A DNA stretch of 64,000 nucleotides from an uncultured Acetatifactor sp. (GTDB lineage: Bacteria; Bacillota; Clostridia; Lachnospirales; Lachnospiraceae): NCBI GenBank assembly GCA_947625255.1, contig CANQNT010000014.1, positions 5,977 through 69,976 of the forward strand, read 5' to 3'. A program made the translations under genes and the position numbers. Below the pieces are notes generated by a model that worked only from the letters and a program-made list of their open reading frames with translations, was not told where the DNA came from and searched no databases. The stretch's first letter is position 1; every line of letters starts with the position of its first letter. This document shows, piece by piece, positions 5,526-35,380 of the stretch.

Positions 5526-5891
5526 TCACAAAACCGCTATCAGAAGAGAAATCCCAAGAAATCCAAGCCCGGTCAAAAGGAAAGGCAATAAAACGCTGCT
5601 CTGTCTCCCCCGTTTTTCCTGTTTCCGGCTGCTGTATTCGTACAAATCCTTGTATTTCCTGTCCGAAAGCAGTGTGGAAAATCCATACCCTATTGTGTCA
5701 AAAGCGCCCGCCCACGCGACCCAGGCAAGCAGCCCCACCAATATGGAGACCGCTCCGGCCACACTGAGTGCATCCACATAATAGATTTTCCGGTCAAAAC
5801 CTTTCAGAAACAGCACAAGCAGTGTAAACCCGACATTGACGAGCAGCGCCGCCACATATCTTTTCCATGACCCCATAGTCACGCTTTCCAT
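5526..5891 (-). CDS. DUF3899-like membrane protein at the end of the opp operon
   Basis: Three hydrophobic segments and GAFDTIGYGF; overlaps the oppF stop. True start may be 5876. Confidence 0.7.
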   Translation of the reverse strand: MESVTMGSWKRYVAALLVNVGFTLLVLFLKGFDRKIYYVDALSVAGAVSILVGLLAWVAWAGAFDTIGYGFSTLLSDRKYKDLYEYSSRKQEKRGRQSSVLLPFLLTGLGFLGISLLIAVL

Positions 5892-7159: not shown

Positions 7160-7181
7160 TTTTTCCTCCATTCCAAAGCGT

Positions 7182-8690: not shown

Positions 8691-8746
8691 AACTTCCACA
8701 CCTTTCCCTAGTCTGCGGATATCCCCAGTCCCAAATCCTTTTTACA

Positions 8747-11667: not shown

Positions 11668-11700
11668 AGTTTTCCCCTTATTTCTTTATCTGTTTAAAAA

Positions 11701-11736
11701 GTAATGCGGCCGGCAGTCCAAGTCCAGCCGCATTAC
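11701..11736 (-). terminator. Hairpin between oppA and oppB
   Basis: GTAATGCGGC/GCCGCATTAC 10-bp stem followed by TTTTT on the minus strand. Confidence 0.65.
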
Positions 11737-11787
11737 CCTTGTGAAAAATGTCAAATCCTGTCGATCAGATTGATCCGAAGCCCGCGC

Positions 11788-19557: not shown

Positions 19558-22077
19558 TTATCTGCTCTCATTGACGAAAATCTGCACCCTGCTCTGGATG
19601 ATATGCGCCACTTCCTCCGCGCTCTTCTGTCCGCTAAAGAACGGCGCCGTTTCCTCCTGAATGATATCCAAGATATCCTGATTATAATAAGCAAGCCGGT
19701 CAACAGATTCTATAAAGTTCAGCATCTCGTCAACCTCTTCCTGGGTAGATGGAGGAATGATCACATCTTCATCATTGAAGTAATAGGTATCGTCATAATA
19801 CTCGCGATTACCGTCCTCGTCTTCCCAATAAGGTCTTTCCGTAGCTTCCTGGGCCACCTCCAGCAAACACTTTTTGTCCACCGGGAACCCGTAATTCGAC
19901 TTCATTTGCTCCTGATATTCATCACCCAAATAGTACCGCACAAACTCCCATGCGCCATCCAGCGCCACACTTCTGGACGAAAGAGCGAAAAGCATATTGC
20001 CGCTGACCACGGAACCGCTTCCCTCCTCCGTCGGGAAACCGATACAGGTGATATCTTCTCCAAACTGAGCGTACTGTATCCGATGCCAGCTGCGGAAATT
20101 GTACAAAGTCATAGGCATCAGCAAGGTCCTGTTTTCCCGATACTGGGTCTCATACATACTCCAGTCGTAGTCGTCGTCATAATTAATTTCCTCGGGCAAT
20201 GTCTTGGCGAATTCCATCAGATTCATAAATTCCTCTGACTCAAAATGACATTCTCCCGTAGACTGATCCACAAACTGCGTACCACAAAACTGAAGGATAG
20301 AGTTAAAGAACGACCCTCTGGTCATATCACCGTAAGCCACGGTTCCCTCCGGCAAAGATGCCATCACCTCATTGAACTGTTCCGTATTCCATTCCGTCCG
20401 ACCGCCCAGCAAAGACGTTTTCGCCGCCCAGGTATTGATGGTAAAGCTGGGAACGACATAATACAAGGTTCCATCGATGGAATAGGCGTCAAACACATTC
20501 TGCAGGAATTCTTTCTGGGACAGTTCCCCGTCCTTCTCCAACAGCGCGCCAACATCCGCGATCAAGCCTTTTGCAATGTAGTTTTCCACCGGAATGTTTC
20601 CGTCCACCACCAGAATATCCGGCATATTGCCCGAAATGATATCATTATTCAGCTGCGTATATCCGGCCATATAATCATCCATGGTCTCATACTGGGAATA
20701 ATCCTTTACTGTGATGCGGTAGCGTTCATTGGTCTTATTAAAATCAACGATCTGTCTGCGGATATTGCTGTTCAGGTATTCACAGCCCAGAATCAGCACA
20801 ACCTTGTCCGGAATATCCTCGGGATTGACCTTGTTAAAGACCGCTACCACCGTATTATAATCCTCATCATAATAGGTGCCCGCGAAATGCTCCTTGTCAA
20901 TAAAGCATAAATTATTCAGCCAGGAAACGGACAAGTCAGAATTCACAAAGCTCATAACCTGCTCGATCTCACCGGCGCTTTCGTTGTAAGTAAAGATGCC
21001 GTTGTTGTTGGCAAGCATCATACTGCCATCCGCCCCGCCATACATACTATAATACATGACGTTATCCGGAAGCGGTACCTTTTCGGATATGGTACCCGTC
21101 TTGGGATCAAAAACACTGTAGAACATTTTGGTGTACTCATTATTATAAGTGACAAACGTCATCGTGCCATCGCTATTCATAAAGCTGGTGGACAAATTCT
21201 CAATATCGAGAGACGCGGTATCCAGTTCCTTGGACTGCTGCAGAACGCCATCCTCGCCAATCATAAGGACTCGATAAGACTGTCCCTGCATAATGACGGT
21301 GGCAACGCCATCTTCTCCCACACTCAGACTGCTCACATAACTATACTCATCCTCAGGAATATCCTCATCCAGGGGAACTTTCCACTTCTCCTTACCGTCC
21401 ATCCCCCAACAGACCAAATAGATGTTTTCCTCATAGATCGGATTGTCCGGATCAGAATAGTCATTAAAATTAACCGTCTGGACCCCATAAAGCAGTCCAT
21501 TCAGGCCGACGCCAATTCTATTATACCAGAAATTAGTGTTCTCATCGCTCTCCTCCATCTCCAGATCATAAACCTGCAGATTGCCGCCGTCCAAATCCAT
21601 GCTCAAAAGCTTGTTTACTAAGACAGGGGGCACATACTCTTCCACTGCGTCGACGGGAATCTCATGGGCGGCGACACCGACAGCGGCCATCACATCCTGC
21701 GTATCACCCTCCGTCTCAGTACCATCCTCCGCATCATCACCCTCCGTCTCAGTACCATCCTCCCCATCATCCCCGTTCGTCTCAGGATAAATATAGGACT
21801 CTGTAACTATGTAAAGCTTGCCGGCCGCATAGGACATTCCCTGGATGTAATAATCATCTCCCAGCTCCTCTGACGGCAATGAAATCTCATTGCCGTGGAA
21901 AACAAACTGTTTCGCCAGACCCACGTTGGGATTGTTTTTCCCGCCGGACGGAATGGACGCGTTGCCGTCCGGTCCGTTTCCCGATTCATCTCCACCCTTA
22001 CCGCAGGCGGCCAGGCCAAGCACCATCACCACTGCCAATAAGAGAGAAATGATTTTTTTCCATGAACCCTTCTTCAT
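19558..22077 (-). CDS. Large extracellular solute-binding lipoprotein (839 aa; CUT1-type C-terminal SBP domain)
   Basis: Lipobox LAAC. C-terminal half has DFNKTNERYRI, GNMPDIL, IGFPT and GAWEFVRY, typical of SBP family 1. Confidence 0.8.
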   Translation of the reverse strand: MKKGSWKKIISLLLAVVMVLGLAACGKGGDESGNGPDGNASIPSGGKNNPNVGLAKQFVFHGNEISLPSEELGDDYYIQGMSYAAGKLYIVTESYIYPETNGDDGEDGTETEGDDAEDGTETEGDTQDVMAAVGVAAHEIPVDAVEEYVPPVLVNKLLSMDLDGGNLQVYDLEMEESDENTNFWYNRIGVGLNGLLYGVQTVNFNDYSDPDNPIYEENIYLVCWGMDGKEKWKVPLDEDIPEDEYSYVSSLSVGEDGVATVIMQGQSYRVLMIGEDGVLQQSKELDTASLDIENLSTSFMNSDGTMTFVTYNNEYTKMFYSVFDPKTGTISEKVPLPDNVMYYSMYGGADGSMMLANNNGIFTYNESAGEIEQVMSFVNSDLSVSWLNNLCFIDKEHFAGTYYDEDYNTVVAVFNKVNPEDIPDKVVLILGCEYLNSNIRRQIVDFNKTNERYRITVKDYSQYETMDDYMAGYTQLNNDIISGNMPDILVVDGNIPVENYIAKGLIADVGALLEKDGELSQKEFLQNVFDAYSIDGTLYYVVPSFTINTWAAKTSLLGGRTEWNTEQFNEVMASLPEGTVAYGDMTRGSFFNSILQFCGTQFVDQSTGECHFESEEFMNLMEFAKTLPEEINYDDDYDWSMYETQYRENRTLLMPMTLYNFRSWHRIQYAQFGEDITCIGFPTEEGSGSVVSGNMLFALSSRSVALDGAWEFVRYYLGDEYQEQMKSNYGFPVDKKCLLEVAQEATERPYWEDEDGNREYYDDTYYFNDEDVIIPPSTQEEVDEMLNFIESVDRLAYYNQDILDIIQEETAPFFSGQKSAEEVAHIIQSRVQIFVNESR
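21703..21768. repeat. Two tandem 33-bp copies encoding GDD(G/A)EDGTETE
   Basis: ATCACCCTCCGTCTCAGTACCATCCTCC(G/C)CATC x2. Confidence 0.85.
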
Positions 22078-23201
22078 TGAAACTCCTCCTCATCATCAAA
22101 TCTGTCTTTATACTTCTTCCTGCGTTTTCTGCGCGCCCGCGCCTTATCCATCTGTCTCTGAGCCTTGTCAGTCAACGCCATGTAAACGCTCCTGGCCGTC
22201 CAGGTCTTATGCTTCCACCAAAGGACGATCGCGATCAATACCAGGACTGTTGGATAAACCAGAAAAACCATTGCCCAAAGCGTGAGCACCCCCACAATGT
22301 CTTCATATCCCCTGGCGATATTTTCCCAATAAGGATAAATAATCGCCTTACCGCTCATGGAACGCACGCCAAAGGACATAATCAATTTAAACCGTTCTGC
22401 CAGATCATACCTTGTGGTGTTTTCCACCACTACTCTGTCCGCCTCGCTCACTCCGATATGGTCACTCACATAATTATAAGCAAACTTCTTGACCGGATTG
22501 GGCATGACCACCTCGTAATGATTGATCCCGTTGTTGGTGCCGTACTTCTGCAGCGTATCATAGGACACATACACGATGGAAGAATCCAGTCCCGCCGCCT
22601 CTTGAAGCCGCCCTTCCTCTCTATGTACCACGCCGGCTACCACATGAGGCCTTCCCCCGATAGATACGATCATTCCCGCTATGTTGTTAGAGCCGAAGAG
22701 CTGCCAGGCACCCACCTCGTCCAGAATGCAGTAATCGCTGTTTAAATCACTCTCCGAGAAATAAGCGCCATCCAAAAGCTGCAAGGGGTGAAAGAGGAAA
22801 AAGTCCCCGCCGACCCCAAGAGCGTTGGCAGTAAGATTGCCTCTGTCGCTCACCACTGTGATCCGTCCGCCGGCACTGTAAGCGTCCGCCCAAAGCCTGG
22901 CAGACGCGTTCGGGGAATCCTGTACCACGGAAGCCTCCTGCAGGCCTCCGTCAATGGAGTGCCGAAACGCCTCCAGCGTATCCAACGAAACATTGGCATT
23001 TTGGGAAAAAAAGCAGCTGATCTGCGCCATCTCTCCATTCTCACCCCAACGTTCGGCCATTTGCTGCGAAACCTGCTGTCCTATCATCAGCTGCGCCATT
23101 CCCAACAGCAGCAGACATACCATAAGGGAAAGAAAACCGCTGATTCCCAAAACCATCTGCCTGACAGACAAGGAATGTAAGAATTTCTTCATATTCATCA
23201 A
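22074..23201 (-). CDS. MacB-like periplasmic-core protein with only two TMs (truncated permease)
   Basis: N-terminal TM, GVGGDFFLFHPL..G..F..D, CILDEVGAWQLFGSNNIAG (MacB PCD-like), one C-terminal TM and a basic tail. Confidence 0.72.
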   Translation of the reverse strand: MMNMKKFLHSLSVRQMVLGISGFLSLMVCLLLLGMAQLMIGQQVSQQMAERWGENGEMAQISCFFSQNANVSLDTLEAFRHSIDGGLQEASVVQDSPNASARLWADAYSAGGRITVVSDRGNLTANALGVGGDFFLFHPLQLLDGAYFSESDLNSDYCILDEVGAWQLFGSNNIAGMIVSIGGRPHVVAGVVHREEGRLQEAAGLDSSIVYVSYDTLQKYGTNNGINHYEVVMPNPVKKFAYNYVSDHIGVSEADRVVVENTTRYDLAERFKLIMSFGVRSMSGKAIIYPYWENIARGYEDIVGVLTLWAMVFLVYPTVLVLIAIVLWWKHKTWTARSVYMALTDKAQRQMDKARARRKRRKKYKDRFDDEEEFQ

Positions 23202-23206
23202 CCTTT

Positions 23207-25063
23207 CTAGTTATCAGCCAGTCTCACTAATTGTCCCGCCGTCACCGGCTTGTCAGAAGTGGTAATCACGTAACTGCTATATGTATACAAGGCTCCCGTA
23301 ACCGCGGACTGTGTATCATCACTGGCTACCACTTCCACGTCCACGCGGACCGCGGTGTATCTGGTCCCCAGCGGGCTGGACTTGGATTCCACCTGAAGCA
23401 CAAAGGTACCGTTGCTGTCTTCACGGATCGCGCTGTTAGGAACCACCATGTCGTAATTGGCGCTTCTGTCGCCTACAGACACGCTTAAGCTCTGCCCCGC
23501 GGTAACATCGCCCTCCACGTCAAACACCAAAAGCCTGTTGGTGGACGGGTTCTGGGGATCAGGGCGAATGGCAGACAACGTAATTGTCATGTCCCCGTAT
23601 CTCCAGGAGTTGACCAGATCGGCCTGAATCCCGGGATTCAATTGCCGCGCCTGGTCGTTGGTGACGCTGAAGCTCATGGTAAAGCCCGCGCCCTCAGGCA
23701 GCATGGTTGCGATAGCACTGCCTGCCGTGGTGTCATTGCCGGCAACAATGTTAATATTGGAAATGGTTCCGGAAATCGGCGCTTCAATCGTCAAGCCAAG
23801 AGCATTCTCCTCTTCCTTACGCACAACCTCCATCTGCTCCGATACTTCTTCCTGCCGCTGCGCCACGTCCTCACGAAGATTGGCAATCTCCTTACGGATC
23901 GCGTTCATCCCACGGGTGGGATCGCTCATGTCCATCTCCCAGGAAATATCCGCCAGCAGCTGTGCCTTGGCCTCCCTGGCATCTTCCAGGGCCTTATTCT
24001 TCTCATCCAGTTCCAGACGCATATTGCTAATGTTCACCGCGATAGAATTCTTGTGGTTCTCTACAGAATTGCGCGCGTCCTCCAGCGCCTTAACGGCATC
24101 GCTGTATTCCTTATATTTCTTATCGTAAGCCTCCTTGGCCTCCTTGTTGTCCACGATCTTCTGCTGCTCTCTTTTCAGCTCGTTGTATCGGTCCAGATTG
24201 GCCTTGGCCAGCTCGAAATCCTCATCGGAAACACTGTAAATGGGAATCGCGTCGCCGCCGGACACTTCCTGCCAGCCCACGATCCGTCCCTCATTTCTTT
24301 CAGCGATGGTGGCCTCATATTCCGCGATTCTTTCATTGTACTGGCTGATTTTATCCAGGGCGTTCTTCACCGGATCAGCGTTCAGTTCCCTTTCGGCCTT
24401 ATTTAACCGATCCTGCTGTTCATTGGTATCCGGGAAAGCGTAATTGAGCTGATTGTTTAAGGTGTCCAGCTGGGAAATCTGCAGATTCAGATCATCCACG
24501 GCCTTCTGGTACTTGGCCACCTCCGCATCCGCCGCGTCAATCCGGCTCTGATACTCCGCCATGGAAGCGGATACACCGTTCTGAGCGTTCTGGATCGCTT
24601 CCTGGGAATGGGTGGTGTCTGAAAGCCCCAGGATCTCTTTCTGCAGACTAATCATCGCGGAACTCAACTCGTCATACTTCGCATTCAGACTGTCCTTGGC
24701 CGTTTCCAGCGCCTCTTCTCTGGTCTTTAGTTCGTTCTTGACCGCCTCCAGCTCAGTGCTCTCCTTTTCGCTCATCAGGAACAGAGGATCGCCCTTCTGC
24801 ACCACATCGCCTTCCCGGACCAGAACGCTTTCCACCTTACGGGTCTCGTTCACCTTGATCTCATAAGGATCATCACTTTCCACTGTGCCCGTACCGCGGA
24901 TCTGCGCCGTGATGCTTCCGGACTGCACATACTTCACCGCCACCTCCGGCAGCGAATAGTTCATAATCGTGTTGGAGAAAAAAGTCAGAAGCAACATCAC
25001 CGTCAGGAAAATGATGGCCGCGTTTTTTACCCATTCTCTTCTCTTGTTTCCATTCTCGTTCAT
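23207..25063 (-). CDS. HlyD/RND-type membrane fusion (adaptor) protein with long coiled coil
   Basis: N-terminal TM, split lipoyl motifs VLVREGDVVQKGDPL and IEAPISGTISNINIVAG, VVPNSAIRED membrane-proximal motif. Confidence 0.85.
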   Translation of the reverse strand: MNENGNKRREWVKNAAIIFLTVMLLLTFFSNTIMNYSLPEVAVKYVQSGSITAQIRGTGTVESDDPYEIKVNETRKVESVLVREGDVVQKGDPLFLMSEKESTELEAVKNELKTREEALETAKDSLNAKYDELSSAMISLQKEILGLSDTTHSQEAIQNAQNGVSASMAEYQSRIDAADAEVAKYQKAVDDLNLQISQLDTLNNQLNYAFPDTNEQQDRLNKAERELNADPVKNALDKISQYNERIAEYEATIAERNEGRIVGWQEVSGGDAIPIYSVSDEDFELAKANLDRYNELKREQQKIVDNKEAKEAYDKKYKEYSDAVKALEDARNSVENHKNSIAVNISNMRLELDEKNKALEDAREAKAQLLADISWEMDMSDPTRGMNAIRKEIANLREDVAQRQEEVSEQMEVVRKEEENALGLTIEAPISGTISNINIVAGNDTTAGSAIATMLPEGAGFTMSFSVTNDQARQLNPGIQADLVNSWRYGDMTITLSAIRPDPQNPSTNRLLVFDVEGDVTAGQSLSVSVGDRSANYDMVVPNSAIREDSNGTFVLQVESKSSPLGTRYTAVRVDVEVVASDDTQSAVTGALYTYSSYVITTSDKPVTAGQLVRLADN

Positions 25064-25080
25064 AATCTTTTCATCCTCTC

Positions 25081-26031
25081 CTATCCTTTTAAACCGCCCT
25101 GAGACGTGATTCCATCCACCAGATATTCTTCACCGTAAAGGAACACCAACAGAGTAGGCACCATGTAAATGGTCGCCACCGCAAAGGCCAGACCGATTTC
25201 TCCCTCATTGATCCTGCTTAAGAATACCGACAAGGGGTGCGTTTCCGAATCCGACAACAAGATCAAAGGCTGTTCCACCATGTTCCAATAATCGATAAAT
25301 ACCAGAATGGCCGCCGAGCAGAGCGTTCCCCTGCACAGAGGCAGACAGATTCTCCGGTAAATCTGCCATTCTCCCGCGCCGTCGATCTGCGCGGCTTCAA
25401 TGGTCGAAACCGGAATCCTGCGCATGAACTTCGTCAGTAAAAAGACCGCGAAAGGAGAGAAAATTCCAGGCAGCCATATGGCCCATTTCGTATCCAACAG
25501 ATTCAGCCAGTCCGAAACCAGATAGTTCGGCACCAGTGTGACCTGATAAGGCATCAGCATCAATATTATGTATACAAAGAAAATGATCTCCCGCAGCCGC
25601 CCGCGGTATCTGGCAAACCCATAGGACGCCAGCGAGGCCACGATCAGCTGGAACAGCACGATAGGTCCAACCAGAATCACGGAATTCCAAAACTTTAACA
25701 GGTATTGGGGACTCCGAAGCAGCACCGTGGCATACTGACTGAAAGATACCATGTCCGGGATGAACTTCAGGTTCACTTTTTCCGAAACAAAGACCCTGCC
25801 GCCCGAGTCGGAGCTTGCGAAAACGGAACCATAATTGGCCGAAATCTCCGCGGAACCCATGAACGAATTAGTGATGGTCAATACGATCGGCATCAGAAAC
25901 AGAAAAGCGAACACGGCTGCCAGAAGCGTCGCCGCCAATATCTTCGTCGTTTTCCACAAGTGCTTTCCCCTGATCCTGCCCTTGGTATACTTGCGGTCGA
26001 TGGCATCCTTCTTAGGGCGTTTCCCGCTCAT
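25081..26031 (-). CDS. Carbohydrate (CUT1) ABC permease, MalG-like
   Basis: KFWNSVIL, ASYGFARY, MLMPYQVTLVPNY, EAAQIDGAGEWQIY, WNMVEQPLI. Confidence 0.9.
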   Translation of the reverse strand: MSGKRPKKDAIDRKYTKGRIRGKHLWKTTKILAATLLAAVFAFLFLMPIVLTITNSFMGSAEISANYGSVFASSDSGGRVFVSEKVNLKFIPDMVSFSQYATVLLRSPQYLLKFWNSVILVGPIVLFQLIVASLASYGFARYRGRLREIIFFVYIILMLMPYQVTLVPNYLVSDWLNLLDTKWAIWLPGIFSPFAVFLLTKFMRRIPVSTIEAAQIDGAGEWQIYRRICLPLCRGTLCSAAILVFIDYWNMVEQPLILLSDSETHPLSVFLSRINEGEIGLAFAVATIYMVPTLLVFLYGEEYLVDGITSQGGLKG

Positions 26032-26981
26032 CCTTCCACATCCTTTCCGAACCGGTCTTCCACGAGAAACAGAATCCCGATAATTACAATCATGACCAAA
26101 GACATCAGTATGGCCGCGGCTGACAGTCTCTGGTAATCAAGCGACGCAAACGCATTGTTCATCAAATGCTGCATCATATAGATGGTATCGTAAGGGTGAT
26201 CTCCGGTCAACAGGTAAATCTCCCGGAACACCTTAAAGGAACTGATCAGGGACATGATCGTCACGAACAAAAAGGTAGAGGACAAGTATCTGGTCTTAAT
26301 GTGGATGAAAATCTGCCAGGGAGAAGCGCTCTCCAGCTTCGCCACCTCTATGATATCCCTGGGAATGCTCCCCAGGGCCGCCATGAACAAAATCATGTTA
26401 TAGCCCAGATTCTTCCACAGAAACAAAATCACAATCACAATCTGGGAATAACCGGACTTGAGCCAGTCGATCTTGGACCCTCCAAACGCCATGAGCACCT
26501 CATTTATGGCGCCGTTAAAATCGAACATCACGCGCCAGATCAGCACGATGGACGCCACCGGCACCATCATGGGGCTTAAGAAAAAGGTCCGAAACTGACT
26601 CTTAAAAGGAATCTTTGCGTCCAGCAGCAGGGCCAGAAGCAAAGACAAGATCACAGCCAGCGGAACCGACACCACGGAAAAACCCAGCGTGTTGGAAACG
26701 GCTGTTTTAAAGGAAAGATTATTCAATAATCTATTGAAATTATACAAACCCACGAAATTCCCGCTGATAGGATTATCCACCATAGAGTAATAAATGATGA
26801 CAAAAAACGGGAGAATGAAAAATGCCATCACCCCCAAAAAACTGGGCGCAATATACAAACTGGACACCACCTGCGTTTTACGCCTTGTCTTCGTCATCCT
26901 ATTGCCGCGCTTCTTTAAAAGCCTGATCTGCTTTTTCTCGGCACGCAGCGCCTTTCGTTCCTCTTTACCGCTCTTCTTCAC
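26028..26981 (-). CDS. Carbohydrate (CUT1) ABC permease, MalF-like
   Basis: APSFLG, FVGLYNF, FFLSPMMVP, WKNLGYNMILFMAAL, EVAKLESAS. GTG start chosen from the GGAGG RBS; could be further downstream. Confidence 0.88.
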   Translation of the reverse strand: MKKSGKEERKALRAEKKQIRLLKKRGNRMTKTRRKTQVVSSLYIAPSFLGVMAFFILPFFVIIYYSMVDNPISGNFVGLYNFNRLLNNLSFKTAVSNTLGFSVVSVPLAVILSLLLALLLDAKIPFKSQFRTFFLSPMMVPVASIVLIWRVMFDFNGAINEVLMAFGGSKIDWLKSGYSQIVIVILFLWKNLGYNMILFMAALGSIPRDIIEVAKLESASPWQIFIHIKTRYLSSTFLFVTIMSLISSFKVFREIYLLTGDHPYDTIYMMQHLMNNAFASLDYQRLSAAAILMSLVMIVIIGILFLVEDRFGKDVEG

Positions 26982-27130
26982 CAAGGTTTCACACCCTCCC
27001 GGACATTCCAATCTTCCTTGCCGGACCATCCGCGCAGTTTCCGTGATTCGGCCTGTTTGCTCCGAATCACTCATCCCGCTCCGCCGAAACGTTTCCAACA
27101 AGGTTTCGCAAGGCAACCCCCCACGCGATC

Positions 27131-27174
27131 ATTATATAACAAAACCCCACAAAATGCATCTTAAGATTTTATGA
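27131..27174 (-). promoter_or_regulatory. Promoter with TATAAT -10 and tandem-repeat regulator site
   Basis: Minus strand CTTCA-TAAAAT-CTTAA-GATG, then 20 nt, then TATAAT (27131-27136). Confidence 0.6.
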
Positions 27175-27231
27175 AGAAAAATGCGGTTTTGCTTCCAGCT
27201 TAGCTTCCTTCCCACGCCATCCCATGACAAA

Positions 27232-27272
27232 CGGTCCGGCCCTGCGGACACATTTCCCGCAGGGCCGGACCG
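27232..27272 (-). terminator. Terminator after the 800-aa lipoprotein gene
   Basis: Perfect 16-bp stem CGGTCCGGCCCTGCGG/CCGCAGGGCCGGACCG. Confidence 0.7.
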
Positions 27273-27287
27273 GCCTTCCTAAATTCA

Positions 27288-29690
27288 TCAGCTATTTTCA
27301 CTGATATAGATTTTCACTCTGCTCTGGATGATGCCCGCCACCTCATCCACGGACTTCTGTCCTTGGAAATAAGGTTCCGCTTCCTCCAGAATGATGTCCA
27401 TGACATCATCGTCAAGGCCGCTGGTGCTTACGGGTCTCGCCAAAGAAATCAGTTCCCGCACAGTTTCGATCTCCTCCGGCAGGGGTACATAACTGTACAG
27501 ACGGAAACCGTCCTCACTCTCCGACCATCCAAAGGATTGTCTGGCAGGCTTCCCGTTCTCGTCCAATATGATGTCGCCGTTCTCATCCGTCTCGTAAGGA
27601 TTTCTGGAATCCTCCGAAAGTCCGCTTTCCAGAGCTTCCTTATTGGATTCAAAGCCAAATCCCCATCTGTTGGAACCGTATGCCGACTCTAACACATATT
27701 CGATAAAGGACCACGCGCCCTCCTTATTGGAGGACTTGGAAGCTATGGCCAGGGAATCGCCCGATGGCTGCAGCATACACCCCACGCTTCCGTCCATGGT
27801 AGGATAACCGATATAGGTCACATTTCCCTCTCCGTAAATCTGCTCCGCATCGGTAATGGCGTCCGCCTGATACAGATTCACCTCATAAAGAAGAACCTTT
27901 CCATCCTGAATCTTCTTTCCCGTGGACTGGCCGTCATACTCCTCGTATTCCGCCGGGAAACGATTGACGAATTCCAAAACCTTCTTAAAATCATCGGAAT
28001 CAAAATGACATTCTCCGGTCTCATAGTCGATAAACATTTCCTGGTTAAAGGCAAGGCACATATCCAGCATATCCGACTGAATCATATTGTCAAAAGGCTT
28101 GATGTCGGGATTGGCATCCAACACGGCCATCATTTCATCCAGGGTCCAGCCCATGTCCTCGCCCACCAGGGATTTGGGGCCCGCCACCGTCTGTACGGTA
28201 AAATAGGTGGGAATGCAGACAAGAACTCCGTCATAGGTAAAGGCATCGATAACCGTCTCCACAAAATCTTCCCTGCTCACCTTATCACTGGCATCCAGAT
28301 AGGGCGTCAGATCCTCCAGCGCTCCTTTTCTCACCAAATTGGCAATATTCACATAATAGGAACTCAGGGAATAAATATCGGGCCCGTTTCCGGACGTCAT
28401 CTCATTGTTCATGGCGGTTACGGCACTATCGTAAACTTCCTGATAATTATCCGACGTAATACTGTTGTAATCATAATAAGACTTAATTGCTATGCGGTAT
28501 TTGTCATTCTGCTTATTGAACTGCACTGCCATCTCCTGCAGATCACTTCCGGTACTGAACGTACCAAGCGTGATAAGCTCCCGTTCCGGCATTTCGGATA
28601 CAGCTGTTTTGGTCAAAAGATACATTCCGGAATCATCATCTCCATAGCTGTATGTGACAACGGCGAGCCGTCCGTCCTCCAGAGGCGCGGTAAAGCGTAT
28701 CCGGTTGCCATACAGATCACTGTCCAGCCATTTCAGGATCGTTTTATGAGTCTGGGTGGCACAATCATATTCGTAGACATTGTCCGAATCATACATCATA
28801 AAATCTCCGTCGATTCCCGGCACCAGACAGTCCCCATTGACACTGGGAACATTCTTATAGGAATCTCCCAGCTTTTTGCCCGTATAATCCACGGGAAATA
28901 ACTCATAGCCGTTTTCACCGTACATCATGCAGTAAACCCTGCCGTCCTTACCGGTTCCCAGGGAAGAGATGTAATTTGCCGCATCGATCTTGCCCGCCGC
29001 CTCGCCATTTTCATCAAAAAGGTAAATTCCGGAGTCCATATTGACATACAGGTGATTCTCAGGGTCCGTCGCCGCGCCCTGCACATAGGCATAGCTCTCA
29101 TCCTTGAAAACTTCCGTCAATTCTTTCCAGAACAGCTCGTTCCCCTGACCGTCATATTTAGCCATAAACGTAGGGCTTATCGACATACCGTCCGCGTTCG
29201 TAATCTGCTGGGAATAGTCCATGAAAAAGAAGATCAGATTTCCCTCCGCATCCGGAAGAAAGCGCATCATGCTCAAACTTTCCCCATGCTCAGAATAATC
29301 CACGTTCAAAGGCTCCGCTTCCCCGCCCTCGACCAGATTCACGCGCCAGTAATCCTCATGTGACTCATAGGTCTCCTCGTTCCAAGTATAAACACTGTAA
29401 TAAAGGTAGTTCCCGCTGATCACCGAATCATTCAGGTTCCCGCCCCCCAAGTCAATATTGACGGGCTTCGCCTGGTAGACATAACCGTCAATCCCCAGTG
29501 AAACGGAAGCGGCCTCCTGCGCGCCGTCCGATTTGCCGCCTTCCCTGTCTCCCGAAGAGCCGCAGCCTACAACGGACAGCCCCAGAACCAGACTCAAGGC
29601 AAAAGCCGCCAGGCGTCTGCAGCGCCCACTCCAAAGTGTTCCCCTGCTTCCTTTCATATGCTTCATTTTACCCATCCTTTCTTCCCTCAA
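27288..29690 (-). CDS. Large extracellular solute-binding lipoprotein (800 aa), paralog of 19558-22077
   Basis: Lipobox VVGC, QFNKQNDKYRI, GNGPDIY, IGYPT, GAWSFIEY. Both paralogs end in near-identical IIQSRV sequences. Confidence 0.8.
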   Translation of the reverse strand: MREERMGKMKHMKGSRGTLWSGRCRRLAAFALSLVLGLSVVGCGSSGDREGGKSDGAQEAASVSLGIDGYVYQAKPVNIDLGGGNLNDSVISGNYLYYSVYTWNEETYESHEDYWRVNLVEGGEAEPLNVDYSEHGESLSMMRFLPDAEGNLIFFFMDYSQQITNADGMSISPTFMAKYDGQGNELFWKELTEVFKDESYAYVQGAATDPENHLYVNMDSGIYLFDENGEAAGKIDAANYISSLGTGKDGRVYCMMYGENGYELFPVDYTGKKLGDSYKNVPSVNGDCLVPGIDGDFMMYDSDNVYEYDCATQTHKTILKWLDSDLYGNRIRFTAPLEDGRLAVVTYSYGDDDSGMYLLTKTAVSEMPERELITLGTFSTGSDLQEMAVQFNKQNDKYRIAIKSYYDYNSITSDNYQEVYDSAVTAMNNEMTSGNGPDIYSLSSYYVNIANLVRKGALEDLTPYLDASDKVSREDFVETVIDAFTYDGVLVCIPTYFTVQTVAGPKSLVGEDMGWTLDEMMAVLDANPDIKPFDNMIQSDMLDMCLAFNQEMFIDYETGECHFDSDDFKKVLEFVNRFPAEYEEYDGQSTGKKIQDGKVLLYEVNLYQADAITDAEQIYGEGNVTYIGYPTMDGSVGCMLQPSGDSLAIASKSSNKEGAWSFIEYVLESAYGSNRWGFGFESNKEALESGLSEDSRNPYETDENGDIILDENGKPARQSFGWSESEDGFRLYSYVPLPEEIETVRELISLARPVSTSGLDDDVMDIILEEAEPYFQGQKSVDEVAGIIQSRVKIYISENS

Positions 29691-29729: not shown

Positions 29730-29773
29730 ATTTTACACGATACTTTCCAAAATGTCATCTTAAGATTTTCTTA
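29730..29773 (-). promoter_or_regulatory. Promoter with TAAAAT -10 and the same tandem-repeat site
   Basis: Minus strand CATAA-GAAAAT-CTTAA-GATG, then 20 nt, then TAAAAT (29730-29735); -35-like ATGACA at 17-nt spacing. Confidence 0.6.
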
Positions 29774-29827: not shown

Positions 29828-30661
29828 TTACTTATACTTGTCATATAAAAAACGTTCCGGAAGCTCCAGATGAAACCCCTTGGCCAGATCCCGCAGGTTA
29901 TCCGCCGTAATGGTCTGCAGCTTGTTGGGCGTCATGGCCATCACCTTGCAAAGGATCTCCGCGGATTTCTCCACCGTGTGCATCAATCCAAAGGTATGGT
30001 CATAATTCTCTCCGGAGCAGAACATCCCATGATGGGCCCAGATGACCACGTCATATTTCTCCATCAGCTTGCTGGTTGCAATCGCAATCTCCTCTCCGCC
30101 GGGAACCATCCATCCGATCACCCCTACGCCGTCCGGGAATACGACGGGACACTCCGTTGCCATTTCCCACAGCTCTCTGGTAAAGACCTCGTCGCTTAGA
30201 GGAAGCACGAATGTCAGAGCAATGATATTGGTAGTATGCGCATGGTAAATGACACGATGCTGTCCATTGGTAACACGCTTTTTCACCTCATGATTCATCA
30301 GATGGGCAGGAAGCTCGCTGGTCGGTCTTCCCCCCTCCACCAGCCCCCAACGGATCCGGTAGTTTTCCCCTACCTCGTCCAACTCAATAATGGCCAAACA
30401 AGCCTCCGGGTCAGACACGATATTACGGAAATACTTGCCGCTGCCGGTCACCAGGAAAAATTCTCCCGCCAGTCCGGGTACATGGGCCCCGATGGGCGTC
30501 CACTCCCCGGGCGCGTTCAGACGGGAACGAATGCTCTCCACCTCCACCGGAGTCAGACGATAGGAAAGATTTCCGCCATTGCGCTCATGCCAGCCCTGCT
30601 GAAAGCCATCGTCCGCCATCTTGACAAAGCCCCTTACAAATCTTGAATCCAAAATCTTCAT
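29828..30661 (-). CDS. rhaD: Rhamnulose-1-phosphate aldolase (class II)
   Basis: GWHERNGGNLS, PTSELPAHL, HAHTTN, WAHHG. Start MKILDS with a GGAGG RBS. Confidence 0.9.
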   Translation of the reverse strand: MKILDSRFVRGFVKMADDGFQQGWHERNGGNLSYRLTPVEVESIRSRLNAPGEWTPIGAHVPGLAGEFFLVTGSGKYFRNIVSDPEACLAIIELDEVGENYRIRWGLVEGGRPTSELPAHLMNHEVKKRVTNGQHRVIYHAHTTNIIALTFVLPLSDEVFTRELWEMATECPVVFPDGVGVIGWMVPGGEEIAIATSKLMEKYDVVIWAHHGMFCSGENYDHTFGLMHTVEKSAEILCKVMAMTPNKLQTITADNLRDLAKGFHLELPERFLYDKYK

Positions 30662-30885
30662 TGAAATACCTCCTCTCCGCCCGCCCCCTGCGGGCATACA
30701 ACCACGCCGGCCGCCAACCGAATCCACCGATTCATCCTCTTACGGTTGTTTGTTCTTGTGGTTTCTTGTTGTTTTTATTTGTTTTATTATTTTAAATCAT
30801 GTGGTTTTAATTGGCAATAGCTTGTTCAACAAAAAACGGATCTACTTTTATCCCTTTTTCGTCAGATTGCCCACTTTTTACGGGA

Positions 30886-33800
30886 TCAATCCACGGATTT
30901 CAAAGATTCCGTCATGCTGACCTCTTCCAGCTTTTTACCCATGACCTTGTTCACAAACCAGGAAAAAGCAAATGTAAGCACAACACTGTACAAAAAGCTT
31001 AAGGGCTTGATTTTTATCTGGAAAGCCACCATGTCGACCCGAATCTGGTCCATCACGAACCGATGCAGGAAGATCCCCAAAACCAGGCCTCCCAGCGCGC
31101 CAAATAAGGTCAGCACCACGTTTTCCCGGAACACATAAGCCTCCGTTTCATGCTGATAAAAGCCCAGGACCTTGATGGTGGCAATTTCCCGGATACGTTC
31201 CGTAATATTAATATTGGTCAGGTTGTAAAGAACGATAAAGGCCAATCCGGCGGCGCAGAGGATTACCACCAGCACGATCAGATCCAGACTCTGCATCATA
31301 CTTCCAAACCGTTCCCGGGTATCCGCGTTCACCGTGACATTGGTCACCTGGGACAAACGCATCAGCGAGGCAGACAACAGATGAGGATCCACTCCCTCGG
31401 CCAAATTCACATAAGCCTCCTTACACTGTGCCGGCTCACCCAGCAGACTTTCATAGGTCTGAAGAGTGACATACGCATAGTTATAAACAAAATTTTCATT
31501 AATACCGGCCACGGTCAGTTCCATGGAACGGCTTTCGTTTTCCCGCAGGATGACTGTGTCTCCCACCTCCACATGGTAGTCTTCAGCCAACTTCTCATTC
31601 AGGATGCATTCGCCTCTGCCAGGCAGCGGCAGCAGCTCTCCCCGGGGAGTATGCAGTCCCAAATAAGGCGAGATATCCGCATTCTCATCCATGGCCACCA
31701 GATTCACGGACTTCACACGGTCATCCACCACCAGATCCATGGCGGTCTCCATGACGGTAACGTAGCTTTCCGCGCGCTCTCCCAGCGTTTCTTCAAATTT
31801 CTTCAGCAATCCCTCGTCCGCCTCGTCACTAAACGTCACGCCGATATCGTAAAGCAATACCCTTTCAAACTGATCGTTTGCCAGGTCCGTAATGGAATCC
31901 TTGATGCCAAAACCGGTGAGCAAAAGCGCAGTACAGCCGCCAATACCGATGACCATCATGAAAAACCGCTTTTTATAACGGAAAATATTCCGGTAAGAAA
32001 CCTTGTACAAGAACTTTAGACGGCTCCAGATCAGGGGAATATGCTCCAACAGGACCCGCTTGCCGGCCTTGGGAGACTTGGGACGCATCAGCTCCGCCGC
32101 CACCTCCGCCAGTTCATACCGGCAGGAAAGCCAGGTTGTGCCCAGGGAACAGGCGCAGGACACGATCAGGGAAATCAGCGCCAGCTTCCAGTTAAAGACA
32201 TATTGCAGCGACGCCACCTTGTACATGATGCCATAAGCCGTCCAAATGACCCGGGGAAACAGCCAGGTCCCCACAAAGAAGCCCGTCACGCAGCCAATAA
32301 CGGCCGCGGAACCCGAATAAAACAAATACTTCCCCATAATCCTGCCGCCGCTATAGCCCAGGGCCTTGAGCACGCCGATCTGGGTCCGCTGCTCCTCCAC
32401 CATGCGGTTCATGGTCGTGATACAGACCAAAGCCGCCACCGCAAAGAAAAATACGGGGAAAATATTGGCAATTCCATCCACAATGCCGGAGTCGCTTTCA
32501 AAGCATACATAACCCACGTTGGTATTGCGGCCCAGAAGATAACCATCCGCCTCCTCCATATCCGCCAGCTGCTCTTCGGCATCCGCGATCTCTTCCTCCG
32601 CGTCCGCGATTTCCTGCAGATATTTCTGACGGGCATCCTGATATTCCGCAAGACCATCCTGGTATTCCTGACGGCCTTCCTGCAGGGAGGCCTCTCCGTC
32701 CAGAACCTCCTGCTGCCCTTCTTCCCACTCTCTCCAGCCATCTTTCAACTGGTTACGCCCTTCCGCCAGATCGGCCTTGGACTGGCCGATCTGCACTTTA
32801 CCGTCCGATATCTGTCTGCGGGCATCCTCGATCTGGGCCCAGGCCTCTTCCAACTGTCTTTGGGCATCCTCCAGCCGCGCTCTGCCCTCATCGATCTGAG
32901 CCTGATAATCATCCATGGTCTCCAGGCCTTCCTGAAGCTGACTCCGACCGTCCAAAAGCTCCAGATACTGCCTGTTGACCTCTTTTCTGGACTCCGCGAC
33001 CTTTTCTCTGTCCTCCGCGATCTTCTTTCTGCTTTCTTCCAGGGCGGCCAGATCGCTCTCCCGCTTTTTCTCCGCCTCGGGAAGAGTGGCCGTCAGATAC
33101 CGATCCACTTCCGCCTTGGCGCTTGCAATAAGGGATGCATAAACATCGGGCACCTCTCCGTATTGCTCCTTTAGAGAAGCCTCCCAGGCCTCCAGCTCCT
33201 GCTTCCTGGCAAGCTGCCTTTCCTTTTCCGCCTCATTCATCGTCCCCTCATTCGCCAAAAGGTCTCCCTGTCTGTTCAGCTGCACCTCCTGCAGATCCAA
33301 CAGGCGGTCCTGCTGATCAAGACTCTGGGAACTGGAAATGAGTTGGGACATAGCCGTGTCCATCATGTTCCATTGTATCTCCAAGGGAGACCTCTGGGCA
33401 TCCAATTCCGCCTGATTGGCATTCAGCTCCTCAAGGGCCTCCCGCACCGCGGCATTCTGTTCCTCCCACAAAGTCTCCTTTTCCGCCAGCTCCGTTTCTC
33501 CGTCCTCAATACGCCTTTCTTCCCTGGCAAGGGTCTCCTCGCCGTCCGAAAGCTTCCGTTCCGAATCCAACAGCTCCTGACGTCCCTTTTCCAATTCTAC
33601 TCTGGCATGCGTAAGTTCGGCCTCACCGTCCTCAATTTCCTGCCAGGCATCCGCCAGCTCATCTGCCGCATCCGCCAGCTCCCTCTCTCCCTCTTCACGC
33701 CCATCCTCCAGTTTACGACGCGCATCGGCTAATTTTTCCTGAAAAAGGGTCTGTACCTTATCATACCGACCGGCAGCCAAGGTGTCTGTAAGGCGCTCCC

Positions 33801-34509
33801 AGTGAGCTTCCTTTTCCTCCAAAAAGGCATCATATTCCTCGCTATAAAGGTCAAAGTCCCGGTCAAACTTCACAAAGGCCTCCGTATAATAATCGGAAGA
33901 AAAGCCCTCCGGCAGCAGGTAGAAAAACCCGCTGATCCGACCGTTTCCCAGAGAGGTATTGCCCCGTTCAAACTGTATGTAAAAGGAGGACTGAACCAGC
34001 CCAACCACGGTATATTCTTCATAAGCGAAATTAGCTTTATCCGCTTTGTCATTGGTGGAAGATATCACGATTTTGGTCCCCAACTGGGAGTTCCCAAACA
34101 GGTTGTTGTCAACCACGCACTCATTCGCCGCCTCTGGCATCCTCCCTGCTTTCAATTCCACTCCGTTAATCCGCTCCATCAGACTGTGGGCCCGCAAAAC
34201 CATTTCCCCGCTCCCGCCATCGGTACAGAGAATATCAAACGTATAGGAACCCTCCGCGGCACGCACCCCTTCCTGAGCCGCCAAAAGCTCCACGTCCTCC
34301 TGGTCCAGGCCCAGGGTGGTCACCACACGGTAATCGTAAAACTGCTTCTCTGTCAAATATGCCTGTGTGGTCTTCACCATGGCGGCCCTAGTTACTTTAA
34401 GCCCCGCAAAAAAACCTACCCCAAGGGCGACAATCGCCAGAATCGCCAGGTAACGTCCCAGACTGCTTTTGATCTCCCGAAATGTGGTCTTCCACATCAT
34501 TGAATTCAT
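30886..34509 (-). CDS. Fused double FtsX-like ABC exporter permease with long coiled coil (1207 aa)
   Basis: Two FtsX modules (MNRMVEEQRTQIGVLKALGY and NITERIREIATIKVLGF) flanking a heptad region. Confidence 0.9.
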   Translation of the reverse strand: MNSMMWKTTFREIKSSLGRYLAILAIVALGVGFFAGLKVTRAAMVKTTQAYLTEKQFYDYRVVTTLGLDQEDVELLAAQEGVRAAEGSYTFDILCTDGGSGEMVLRAHSLMERINGVELKAGRMPEAANECVVDNNLFGNSQLGTKIVISSTNDKADKANFAYEEYTVVGLVQSSFYIQFERGNTSLGNGRISGFFYLLPEGFSSDYYTEAFVKFDRDFDLYSEEYDAFLEEKEAHWERLTDTLAAGRYDKVQTLFQEKLADARRKLEDGREEGERELADAADELADAWQEIEDGEAELTHARVELEKGRQELLDSERKLSDGEETLAREERRIEDGETELAEKETLWEEQNAAVREALEELNANQAELDAQRSPLEIQWNMMDTAMSQLISSSQSLDQQDRLLDLQEVQLNRQGDLLANEGTMNEAEKERQLARKQELEAWEASLKEQYGEVPDVYASLIASAKAEVDRYLTATLPEAEKKRESDLAALEESRKKIAEDREKVAESRKEVNRQYLELLDGRSQLQEGLETMDDYQAQIDEGRARLEDAQRQLEEAWAQIEDARRQISDGKVQIGQSKADLAEGRNQLKDGWREWEEGQQEVLDGEASLQEGRQEYQDGLAEYQDARQKYLQEIADAEEEIADAEEQLADMEEADGYLLGRNTNVGYVCFESDSGIVDGIANIFPVFFFAVAALVCITTMNRMVEEQRTQIGVLKALGYSGGRIMGKYLFYSGSAAVIGCVTGFFVGTWLFPRVIWTAYGIMYKVASLQYVFNWKLALISLIVSCACSLGTTWLSCRYELAEVAAELMRPKSPKAGKRVLLEHIPLIWSRLKFLYKVSYRNIFRYKKRFFMMVIGIGGCTALLLTGFGIKDSITDLANDQFERVLLYDIGVTFSDEADEGLLKKFEETLGERAESYVTVMETAMDLVVDDRVKSVNLVAMDENADISPYLGLHTPRGELLPLPGRGECILNEKLAEDYHVEVGDTVILRENESRSMELTVAGINENFVYNYAYVTLQTYESLLGEPAQCKEAYVNLAEGVDPHLLSASLMRLSQVTNVTVNADTRERFGSMMQSLDLIVLVVILCAAGLAFIVLYNLTNINITERIREIATIKVLGFYQHETEAYVFRENVVLTLFGALGGLVLGIFLHRFVMDQIRVDMVAFQIKIKPLSFLYSVVLTFAFSWFVNKVMGKKLEEVSMTESLKSVD

Positions 34510-34675: not shown

Positions 34676-35380
34676 CTACCATTCAATGTCCGCCACGTCC
34701 ACAATGTTGCGGTTCTTCACCATATTCGTCACGGTGCCGCTTTTTACCGTAATAACGCGGTCCGCCATGGCAGTCAGCGCCTGATTATGGGTAATGACGA
34801 TGACCGTCTTGCCTTTCTGACGGCAAGTATCCTGCAGCAGCTTCAGCACGGCCTTACCCGTATTATAATCCAAGGCCCCCGTAGGCTCGTCACAGAGCAG
34901 AATCTTAGGATTCTTGGCCAGGGCTCTGGCAATCGCCACTCTCTGCTGCTCGCCGCCCGACAGCTGGGCCGGGAAATTCTGTAAGCGCTCGCCAAGGCCT
35001 ACCTCCCGAAGCACCTGCGCCGCGTTCAAAGGATCTTTGCAAATCTGGGCGGCCAATTCCACGTTTTCCAGCGCGGTCAGGTTCTGTACCAGGTTGTAAA
35101 ACTGAAAAACGAAGCCGATATCATAGCGCCGATAAGTCGTGAGCTTATGCTTGTCATAGGCGGAAATTTCTTTTCCGTCCAGGTAAACGTGTCCCTCCGT
35201 CAGCGTGTCCATGCCGCCCAGGATATTCAAAATCGTGGTCTTGCCCGCGCCGGACGCCCCCACGATCACACAAAATTCCCCTTTATCGATCTCAAAATTC
35301 ACATCATGCAGGGCAGGAATTTCCACCTCACCCGTCTTATACACCTTTTTCACATGATCAAACGTAACAAACGCGCTCAT
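34676..35380 (-). CDS. LolD/MacB-type ABC ATPase
   Basis: [41 protein letters not shown]. Confidence 0.93.

Follow-up and report, generated by a model that had tools for sequence, protein, structure and literature searches.

ATP-binding cassette (ABC) transporters are taught either as importers, of type I or type II and dependent on binding proteins, or as exporters and extractors, and membrane fusion proteins (MFPs) and the MacB ectodomain belong to the second group. The sharing of MsmX-type ATPases is established in Firmicutes (PMC7658222), the C. thermocellum protein clo1313_2554 being one such shared ATPase (PMC9601137), and MFPs are documented in monoderms (PMC5768738, PMC4887032, PMC5985334). 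Transporter C of C. thermocellum, with its binding protein CbpC, is encoded in an operon of four genes (Cthe_2125-2128 or clo1313_2783-2786; PMC8303734, PMC11212667) and is the only studied relative of the system described here. That system is a six-gene locus at positions 19558-29690 of a 64,000-nucleotide stretch (the window, by which we mean the whole of the DNA analysed) of contig CANQNT010000014.1 (GCA_947625255.1, contig positions 5,977 to 69,976), from an uncultured Acetatifactor sp. of the Lachnospiraceae. It joins parts of both groups: a MalF-like and a MalG-like permease, an HlyD/MacA-type MFP, a protein with two transmembrane (TM) helices and the periplasmic core domain (PCD) of MacB, and two giant solute-binding protein (SBP) lipoproteins. 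The locus probably encodes a type I, SBP-dependent ABC transporter, likely an importer, with an accessory assembly resembling MacA and the MacB ectodomain.

Organization and predicted regulation of the locus

All six open reading frames (ORFs) were confirmed on the minus strand, and their products were classified by a Pfam scan. SBP1 (27288-29690) encodes a lipoprotein of 800 aa from a TTG start, with a likely ATG start at 29675 and the lipobox VVGC. A strong terminator-like hairpin (27232-27272, minus strand; 17-bp stem, 14 GC pairs) begins 16 nt past the SBP1 stop and is followed, in the same intergenic region, by a promoter; SBP1 is its own transcription unit, apart from a malF-malG-mfp-pcd-sbp2 operon. 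Within that operon malF (maximal ORF 26028-27116; MalF/UgpA-type permease, BPD_transp_1) overlaps malG (25081-26031; MalG/UgpE-type permease of 316 aa, BPD_transp_1) by 4 nt, malG is separated by 17 nt from mfp (23207-25063; HlyD/MacA-type MFP of 618 aa, HlyD_3 and Biotin_lipoyl_2) and mfp by 5-14 nt from pcd (22074-23201; two-TM MacB-PCD protein of 372-375 aa, MacB_PCD only), which in turn overlaps sbp2 (19558-22077; giant lipoprotein of 839 aa, lipobox LAAC) by 4 nt. A preliminary description of the window had reported six co-oriented genes, the inner five overlapping or less than 20 bp apart, and the ORFs, their Pfam matches and the measured gaps and overlaps agree with it on both counts. 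The annotated malF start is probably over-extended, a likelier start being the TTG at 26984 behind the ribosome-binding site GGGAGGG, which would give a protein of 318 aa; most MalF homologues are about 285-340 aa long, in line with this shorter version. Apparent ORFs of 1038-1135 aa that would fuse SBP1 to MalF were rejected as artefacts, since stop codons are present. MalF, MalG, MFP and PCD are each single-copy, at the subtype level, in the source genome.

The two transcription units share a promoter motif. One copy, AAAATCTTAAGATGACATTTTG (29748-29769, minus strand), overlaps the -35 box of SBP1, whose -10 box TAAAAT lies at 29735-29730; the second, AAAATCTTAAGATGCATTTTG (27150-27170, minus strand), belongs to the malF-operon promoter, with its -10 box TATAAT at 27136-27131. 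In both promoters the 21-22-nt motif AAAATCTTAAGATG(N)CATTTTG, which contains the palindrome ATCTTAAGAT, sits on the -35 box at equal spacing to the -10 box. In the 4.07-Mb genome the only two sites of AATCTTAAGATG are at this locus, and the core 12-mer of the motif is likewise confined to the two promoters; the motif was not found 5' of the orphan SBP paralogues described below when the whole genome was scanned. Five related species (loci L003, L046, L049, L071 and L083) also have it ahead of their first SBP gene. We regard the motif as a predicted operator, and its presence at both the SBP1 and malF promoters supports co-regulation of all six genes.

Conservation of the module

A pattern scan with the PCD protein over contigs of one genome per species yielded 80 loci, to which exact-protein look-ups added 4, and gene neighbourhoods were surveyed by tblastn with nine window proteins. 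The nearest related loci, drawn from metagenome-assembled genomes (MAGs) and isolates, all belong to Acetatifactor or Lachnospiraceae, and every sufficiently long locus among these 84 has the order SBP-MalF-MalG-MFP-PCD-SBP. The core order permease-permease-adaptor-PCD is constant in all of the roughly 105 related loci with sequence at that place, including those of other genera and families. MalG is the most conserved part (about 75-87% identity in Acetatifactor-like loci and 58-80% in other genera); MalF is 59-78% identical in relatives, and in the tblastn survey MalG stands at about 80% and MalF at 60-78%, while the PCD protein reaches about 56%, the MFP about 42% and the SBPs 31-54%, mostly 35-45%.

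The PCD protein was found in 27 of 250 Lachnospiraceae genera sampled with one genome each (about 11%), always in single copy, and in 4 of 278 genera of a phylum-wide sample, a second family among them. Of 14 loci fetched from divergent genomes 13 carry the module, with PCD proteins 28-47% identical, and all 13 keep MalF-MalG-MFP-PCD with one or two giant SBPs flanking; L099 was rejected as a member because it has an ordinary MacB-type ATPase/permease pair instead. A search seeded from the second family reached proteins of Oscillospiraceae-labelled MAGs, and these loci carry the module too. Against 1.84 billion representatives of 50%-identity clusters, the PCD family returned 953 at E <= 1e-3 and 488 at E <= 1e-30 and is well separated from ordinary MacB/FtsX proteins.

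The recurring arrangement is far beyond chance, and MalF-MalG-MFP-PCD is one conserved module. The preliminary description had treated the importer and exporter parts as a single unit, a view it would have given up had the MFP/MacB genes proved inconsistently linked to CUT1 permeases elsewhere. They are linked in every related locus examined; all 13 divergent loci and those labelled Oscillospiraceae keep the module order.

Permeases and their probable ATPase

Both permeases match PF00528 (BPD_transp_1), and their best NCBIfam matches are UgpA/MalF/GlcT for MalF and UgpE/MalG/GlcU for MalG, all under the equivalog cut-offs. MalG has a canonical EAA coupling loop, EAAQIDGAGEWQIYRRICLP. Of the features that mark a CUT1 importer, the locus has the two BPD_transp_1 subunits with an EAA loop and the binding protein of the SBP_bac_1/8 class.

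No ATPase gene was found by Pfam in any of the six ORFs. In L097, the ORF after pcd overlaps it by 41 nt, contains ABC_tran, OB_MalK and TOBE_2, and reaches 504 bits against NF008653, the UgpC/MalK subfamily model, for which the cut-off is 432. A gene with the same three domains also follows pcd in the Oscillospiraceae-like loci L109 and L110 and in a JGI contig; in L096 an ATPase directly after pcd is indicated by a tblastn match alone, with domains unchecked. The source genome has exactly one OB_MalK ATPase, a stand-alone gene product of 370 aa that scores 500 bits on NF008653, alongside at least 12 other CUT1 permease pairs, the shared-ATPase pattern familiar from Firmicutes. The missing ATPase is therefore explained, because relatives encode a MalK/MsmX-type enzyme in cis and the source genome has one in trans, which we infer to serve this module. 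The full form of the module is thus SBP-MalF-MalG-MFP-PCD-MalK, with a second SBP taking the place of MalK in Lachnospiraceae. The preliminary description was literally right that the block has no ATPase, but this is a local accident of lineage. It had also left the direction of transport wholly open; every energised part is of importer type, and therefore the direction is not wholly open.

The adaptor and the two-TM PCD protein

The MFP matches HlyD_3, Biotin_lipoyl_2 and HlyD_D23 in Pfam and, below cut-off, the RND_mfp and type_I_hlyD subfamilies of NCBIfam; its match to MacA is weak, and precomputed Pfam matches of homologous MFPs include BSH_YknX and YknX_C. An N-terminal TM helix spans residues 12-30. 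The lipoyl half-motifs lie at residues ~76-95 and ~425, and the ~330 heptad-rich residues between them are divided by a non-helical tip near residues 258-282 into arms of ~140-155 residues, each of which would be roughly 20-25 nm long if fully helical. We counted the protein as a member of the HlyD/MacA family on its N-terminal TM helix and its lipoyl domain split by a coiled-coil hairpin; a beta-barrel and membrane-proximal domains would be expected from the family. An MFP in a monoderm with no TolC to reach, which the preliminary description had treated as a puzzle, is already known from YknX and Spr0693 (PMC5768738).

The PCD protein matches PF12704 (MacB_PCD) at 1.4e-10, with no match to PF02687 (FtsX) in the Pfam scan, and the only hydrophobic helices in a hydropathy scan are those of residues 16-34 and 308-326. 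This two-TM layout holds in 80 of 80 aligned family members. In an AlphaFold2 model (mean predicted local distance difference test score, pLDDT, 88; predicted template modelling score, pTM, 0.79), TM1 leads into an ectodomain of mixed alpha/beta structure, which is followed by a helix of 40 residues containing TM2 and by a basic helix in the cytoplasm. The top Foldseek matches of the model are MacB of A. baumannii and A. actinomycetemcomitans (5gko, 5lil) and Spr0695 (5xu1), with E values of 1e-10 to 1e-8, a range that also holds the isolated ectodomains of MacB (3ftj) and YknZ (5f9q). By the model and these matches, the protein is the MacB stalk and ectodomain without TM3-TM4 and without a nucleotide-binding domain (NBD). 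Among the marks of a MacB/FtsX-type permease, it has the PCD fold with stalk helices and lacks both the four-TM FtsX domain and a cognate MacB/LolD NBD. The earlier term "MacB-like" accordingly stands for the ectodomain fold, but the protein is not a MacB core, having two TM helices and no FtsX four-helix bundle. Just outside TM2 lies an invariant or nearly invariant block (Y286-P287-Y288-W289-E290-N291, A293-R294, E297-D298; motif YPYWEN.ARGYED), and conservation at this membrane-proximal end of the stalk is as would be expected for a protein-protein contact.

Propeller-SBP lipoproteins and their paralogues

In both giant lipoproteins the SBP_bac_1/8 match is confined to the C-terminal part, at residues ~380-670 of 800 in SBP1 and ~445-737 of 839 in SBP2, and the two are 28.5% identical over ~515 aa; they were aligned together with 104 homologues. 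SBP1 consists of an N-terminal all-beta, propeller-like domain and a C-terminal CUT1-type solute-binding domain. The SBP2 model (pLDDT 89.6, pTM 0.86) runs from signal and lipobox through a disordered linker to an all-beta domain of about 23 strands (56-416), which has an acidic disordered insert at 103-141, and a two-lobed SBP fold (~426-839). No Pfam family covers the beta domain of SBP2; by sequence, the N-terminal domain of these SBPs resembles designed Kelch-like, PQQ, WD40 and NHL propellers only weakly, and Foldseek with the whole SBP2 model returned SBP matches alone, at the top oligosaccharide SBPs.

SBP1 and SBP2 each match 10-11 further places in the genome, about 12 distinct ORFs of 735-829 aa in all. 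These orphan paralogues, in loci L100-L108 on contigs C49, C5 (two loci), C33, C81, C16, C6, C52 and C3, have no permease of the module subtype alongside; their neighbours are GH85, GH115 and GH3 genes, ABC exporters and housekeeping genes. Contig C16 has three tandem giant copies and a shorter SBP of 506 aa. Three of the nine orphan loci adjoin two-component systems, in the arrangements response regulator-histidine kinase-SBP on C49 and response regulator-ABC ATPase-ABC-2 permease-histidine kinase-SBP on C3, and with a LytTR regulator on C5. Arrays of several SBP genes stand beside the module itself in L019, L045, L048, L050, L114 and L115.

Two metagenomic cluster representatives, P0264 and P0279, are predicted fusions of a two-TM MacB_PCD protein to a propeller-SBP (1089 and 1131 aa), and in P0279 a plain TM helix replaces the SBP lipobox. 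As predicted proteins they argue for a physical relationship between PCD and SBP. A short MFP occurs with propeller-less SBPs in L113-L115, three loci of one clade, versus the long MFP with propeller-SBPs elsewhere, and within the propeller type MFP length and SBP size are weakly correlated (rho 0.23, p 0.036, uncorrected for phylogeny). That adaptor length tracks SBP size is suggestive only.

Relationship to CbpC and transporter C

The first Foldseek match of the SBP2 model is C. thermocellum CbpC (PDB 7x0o). A profile of 106 giant SBPs searched against the PDB likewise finds CbpC at E 5e-34, the next structure following at 5e-14, and the alignment extends to a common C-terminal motif, G.KSA..VA..IQ.RV..Y.NE; the SBP domain belongs to the CbpC subfamily. 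We searched for CbpC-like loci with the CbpC residues printed in the profile alignment. L113, from Inconstantimicrobium mannanitabidum, has the order SBP(453)-permease-permease-MFP(370)-MacB_PCD(399), with lengths in aa; L114 has six SBPs followed by permease-permease-MFP(433)-PCD(466), and L115 two SBPs followed by permease-permease-MFP(454)-PCD(464). The adaptors of L113 and L115 are HlyD-family proteins homologous to the window MFP at both ends. Permeases of the MalFG type, an MFP and a MacB_PCD protein thus accompany an SBP of the CbpC subfamily, and the module exists in a CbpC-type form.

In an Acetivibrio MAG (L112, 9001-15661), an orphan homologue that shares 86% identity with CbpC of C. 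thermocellum lies ahead of genes for a response regulator of the LuxR type, an ABC exporter, a Bacteriocin_CLI3235 precursor and a radical-SAM enzyme.

Interpretation of the module and alternative explanations

In the reading that we consider probable, the MalF-like and MalG-like permeases would form a translocator of the MalFGK2/UgpAEC (CUT1) kind, and its motor would be a MalK/MsmX-type ATPase, here supplied in trans by the stand-alone gene. By analogy with MacA6-MacB2, the MFP and the PCD protein would build an extracytoplasmic assembly on or beside the MalFG core that reaches into or through the wall. Ligand would be brought by the propeller::CbpC-type SBP lipoproteins, two from the locus and about 12 from elsewhere in the genome, all presumably docking to the single translocator. 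The direction would most likely be import, of a substrate that need not be a simple sugar. We infer that the products of the five or six genes assemble into one complex, and likewise the stoichiometry and role of the adaptor/PCD pair within it.

Several observations weigh against an importer of this kind. The EAA loop of MalF is degenerate, EVAKLESASPWQIF. Loss of transporter C is reported to leave growth on glucose, cellobiose and Avicel normal; in the same study none of the sugars tried was bound by CbpC in isothermal titration calorimetry or nuclear magnetic resonance, and an extra loop blocked the CbpC pocket (PMC9601137). Glucose and cellodextrins had been reported in 2009 to bind with sub-micromolar affinity, as tabulated in PMC11212667, a result not reproduced in 2022. 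A role in nutrient-sugar uptake is therefore unproven and may be wrong. It is important to note that the proposed contact between MalFG and the PCD/MFP pair is drawn from gene linkage and the fusions, and that the fusions are metagenome gene calls which could be frameshift artefacts, though this is less likely for P0279. The presence of MFP and PCD genes in the C. thermocellum locus itself is drawn from the CbpC-like loci of other species and from one figure legend, which names 'acra' and 'hp' among the drawn genes (PMC9601137). In the literature we found no experiment on a propeller-type member. The preliminary description had also allowed that homologous operons might already be shown to be ordinary sugar importers; none has been, and the studied relative showed neither sugar binding nor a growth phenotype (PMC9601137).

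These same negative results would be accommodated if the MalFGK2-type core spent ATP on work beyond the membrane, in the manner of FtsEX, LolCDE and MacB, or reported ligand occupancy, with little or no net uptake. Such surface sensing or mechanotransmission, in which the propeller-SBPs would be receptors and the MFP/PCD stalk would pass force or hold partners in the wall, seems to us unlikely, but it is the rival to be taken most seriously. Besides the CbpC and transporter C data it would account for the retention by the PCD protein of exactly the mechanotransmission elements of MacB, TM1, PCD and TM2 stalk (PMC5985334), for the two-component systems at three of the nine orphan SBP loci and the response regulator adjoining the orphan CbpC homologue of L112, and for the fast divergence of the SBPs (35-40% identity) while the permeases remain at 65-85%. 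However, no hydrolase, kinase or other effector is consistently found in or next to the module, most SBP paralogues lie away from regulators, the transmembrane domains (TMDs) retain importer coupling loops, and the ATPase retains the MalK OB/TOBE domain typical of nutrient importers. A further alternative is an exporter or extraction pump driven, unusually, by a MalFGK-type core, in which the MFP and PCD protein would expel or extract peptides, lipids or glycans at the membrane's outer face, as in MacAB or YknXYZ. MFPs and the MacB PCD are otherwise known from export or extraction only (PMC5768738, PMC5985334, PMC4887032), and some neighbours resemble those of bacteriocins or of ribosomally synthesized and post-translationally modified peptides: Bacteriocin_CLI3235 and radical SAM in L112, and a Peptidase_S8 gene with small ORFs in L115. 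In addition, one orphan SBP gene comes after an ABC-2 transporter/two-component module of the antimicrobial-peptide-defence kind. Neighbours of the sort found in biosynthetic gene clusters are not conserved, however; SBPs and a MalK-type NBD are hallmarks of importers, and the PCD protein lacks the coupling helix and TM3-4 bundle as well as a MacB-type NBD. To our knowledge no type I (BPD_transp_1) ABC transporter acts as an exporter, and we consider this explanation quite improbable.

The locus might also combine two unrelated systems, an ordinary CUT1 sugar importer and an MFP/PCD pair serving a MacB-type transporter encoded upstream. On the same strand, 1-6 kb upstream of the module and overlooked in the ATPase account of the preliminary description, lie genes for a LolD/MacB/DevA-type ATPase of 234 aa (34676-35380, minus strand) and an FtsX/MacB_PCD permease of 1207 aa (30886-34509, minus strand). 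MacB-type permeases usually pair with an MFP, a MacB-type pair is found upstream in about one third to one half of the Acetatifactor-like loci with enough upstream sequence, and in L004 it is directly adjacent to the module. But the family of the giant FtsX permease is present in 179 of 251 Lachnospiraceae genomes and the PCD module in 28 of the same 251, and no giant FtsX gene lies beside the module in the divergent loci L086-L098 or L109-L115. Moreover, mfp and pcd invariably stand between malG on one side and an SBP or malK gene on the other, their codons overlapping or nearly abutting those of the neighbours. Here a rhamnulose-1-phosphate aldolase-like gene with its own terminator (29828-30727) separates the two sets. 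We therefore rejected the MacB-type pair as motor or partner of the module on its phyletic pattern and its absence from divergent loci and regard it as an independent neighbour; that two systems merely abut here deserves very little credence.

Returning to the type I transporter with an accessory assembly, a more far-reaching version of it is possible, although we hold it tentatively and would sooner expect it to be wrong in some part. The module would then be the first MFP-dependent type I importer, a MalFGK2-type core built into an assembly like the MacA hexamer and MacB ectodomain dimer, with a hairpin tube of ~20-30 nm across the Gram-positive wall zone, interchangeable propeller-SBPs that capture and hand over ligands that are large or kept out by the wall, and an exporter-derived mechanotransmission stalk coupled to the ATP-driven motions of the importer. 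If the parts do form one complex, thick-walled bacteria would have a further, novel means of moving or sensing material across the wall, and the idea of mechanotransmission would extend to importer cores. The system is spread over about 11% of sampled Lachnospiraceae genera, a second family and Oscillospiraceae-labelled MAGs, with the CbpC-type form in Inconstantimicrobium and, according to the literature, in C. thermocellum. It could account for the difficulty of establishing transporter C as an importer of cellodextrins, and C. thermocellum is genetically tractable. In gut Lachnospiraceae, the number and rapid evolution of the propeller-SBP paralogues suggest a wide range of ligands, which may be relevant to foraging on glycans or peptides there.

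Neighbouring genes and other features of the window

The 1207-aa permease has a duplicated layout, TM-PCD-FtsX-TM-PCD-FtsX, and its first ectodomain contains a coiled-coil insertion of ~425 aa (~230-655; SMC/HmpF-like matches). It is single-copy in the source genome and, independently of the module, a MacB-like protein that spans the wall. The aldolase-like gene (NF002963, 321 bits) is 95-96% identical in the two closest loci, L005 and L006; a gene for a PHP-domain protein takes its place in other species. Neighbours of the module vary, including the rhaD-like aldolase, the PHP protein, a CDF transporter and a YgjP-like protein, and across loci no conserved functional neighbour gives a robust clue to the substrate. 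In L109 (11798-13078) and L110 (11467-12744) a LysM-GH18 gene (~425 aa) directly follows the in-cluster MalK-type ATPase gene, and SLH-GH18 and Amidase_6 genes lie close by in L109; the LysM-GH18 linkage may hint at wall or chitin-type glycans, or may be mere synteny.

Elsewhere in the window an Opp-type locus (5879-14577, minus strand) encodes an SBP_bac_5 protein of 929 aa and an OppC of 627 aa with ~350 residues between OppC_N and BPD_transp_1. Its ATPases, of 505 and 446 aa, have insertions that stretch the ABC_tran match (residues 31-338 in one of them). CodY is also encoded within the window.

Comparison with known systems

Like the CUT1 importers (E. coli MalEFGK2, the MsmX-dependent systems of B. 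subtilis, and transporter B of C. thermocellum, which works with clo1313_2554), the locus encodes a pair of BPD_transp_1 permeases with an EAA loop and a lipoprotein of the SBP_bac_1/8 class, and it presumably uses a MalK/UgpC/MsmX-type ATPase in trans, of the type that relatives encode in cis (PMC7658222, PMC9601137). It differs in that its SBPs are double the normal size, with an N-terminal propeller, and in that about 14 SBP paralogues appear to serve one translocator. In the literature that we searched, no binding-protein-dependent ABC importer is described with an MFP or MacB-PCD component, let alone with an obligatory pair of MFP and MacB-ectodomain protein.

YknWXYZ of B. subtilis and B. 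amyloliquefaciens and Spr0693-0694-0695 of S. pneumoniae likewise combine an MFP that is anchored in a monoderm's cytoplasmic membrane and meets no outer-membrane partner with an ectodomain of the MacB PCD fold (Foldseek 5xu1, 5f9q). Those systems are built on a four-TM FtsX-type permease and a MacB/LolD-type NBD and serve export, whereas the module described here has a two-TM PCD protein, no FtsX domain and no cognate MacB-type NBD, and lies in an importer operon. A conceptual likeness exists to Mce/Mla systems, in which a hexameric extracytoplasmic tunnel, anchored in the membrane on an ABC core, spans the envelope and can serve import; these use MCE-domain proteins, another TMD fold and no SBPs, and have no homology to the module.

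The closest likeness is to transporter C and the CbpC-like loci. The latter have the same order of one or more SBPs, two permeases, an HlyD-type MFP and a MacB_PCD protein of two-TM-like layout, and transporter C and the CbpC-like clusters, like this locus, have several SBP copies and no ATPase in the cluster. Their SBPs, of ordinary length (~455 aa), are without the propeller of ~360 aa, their MFPs are shorter (370-454 aa, with a hairpin insert of ~65-140 aa versus ~330 aa here), and their PCD proteins have low identity to that of the window (27% over 84 aa). Published work on transporter C has handled it as a putative cellodextrin importer and left the MFP/PCD genes unanalysed. The combination is undescribed in the literature searched, in line with the preliminary description, which named the locus a candidate for an uncharacterised system; all of its parts come from known families, and one relative has already been handled as a putative sugar transporter.

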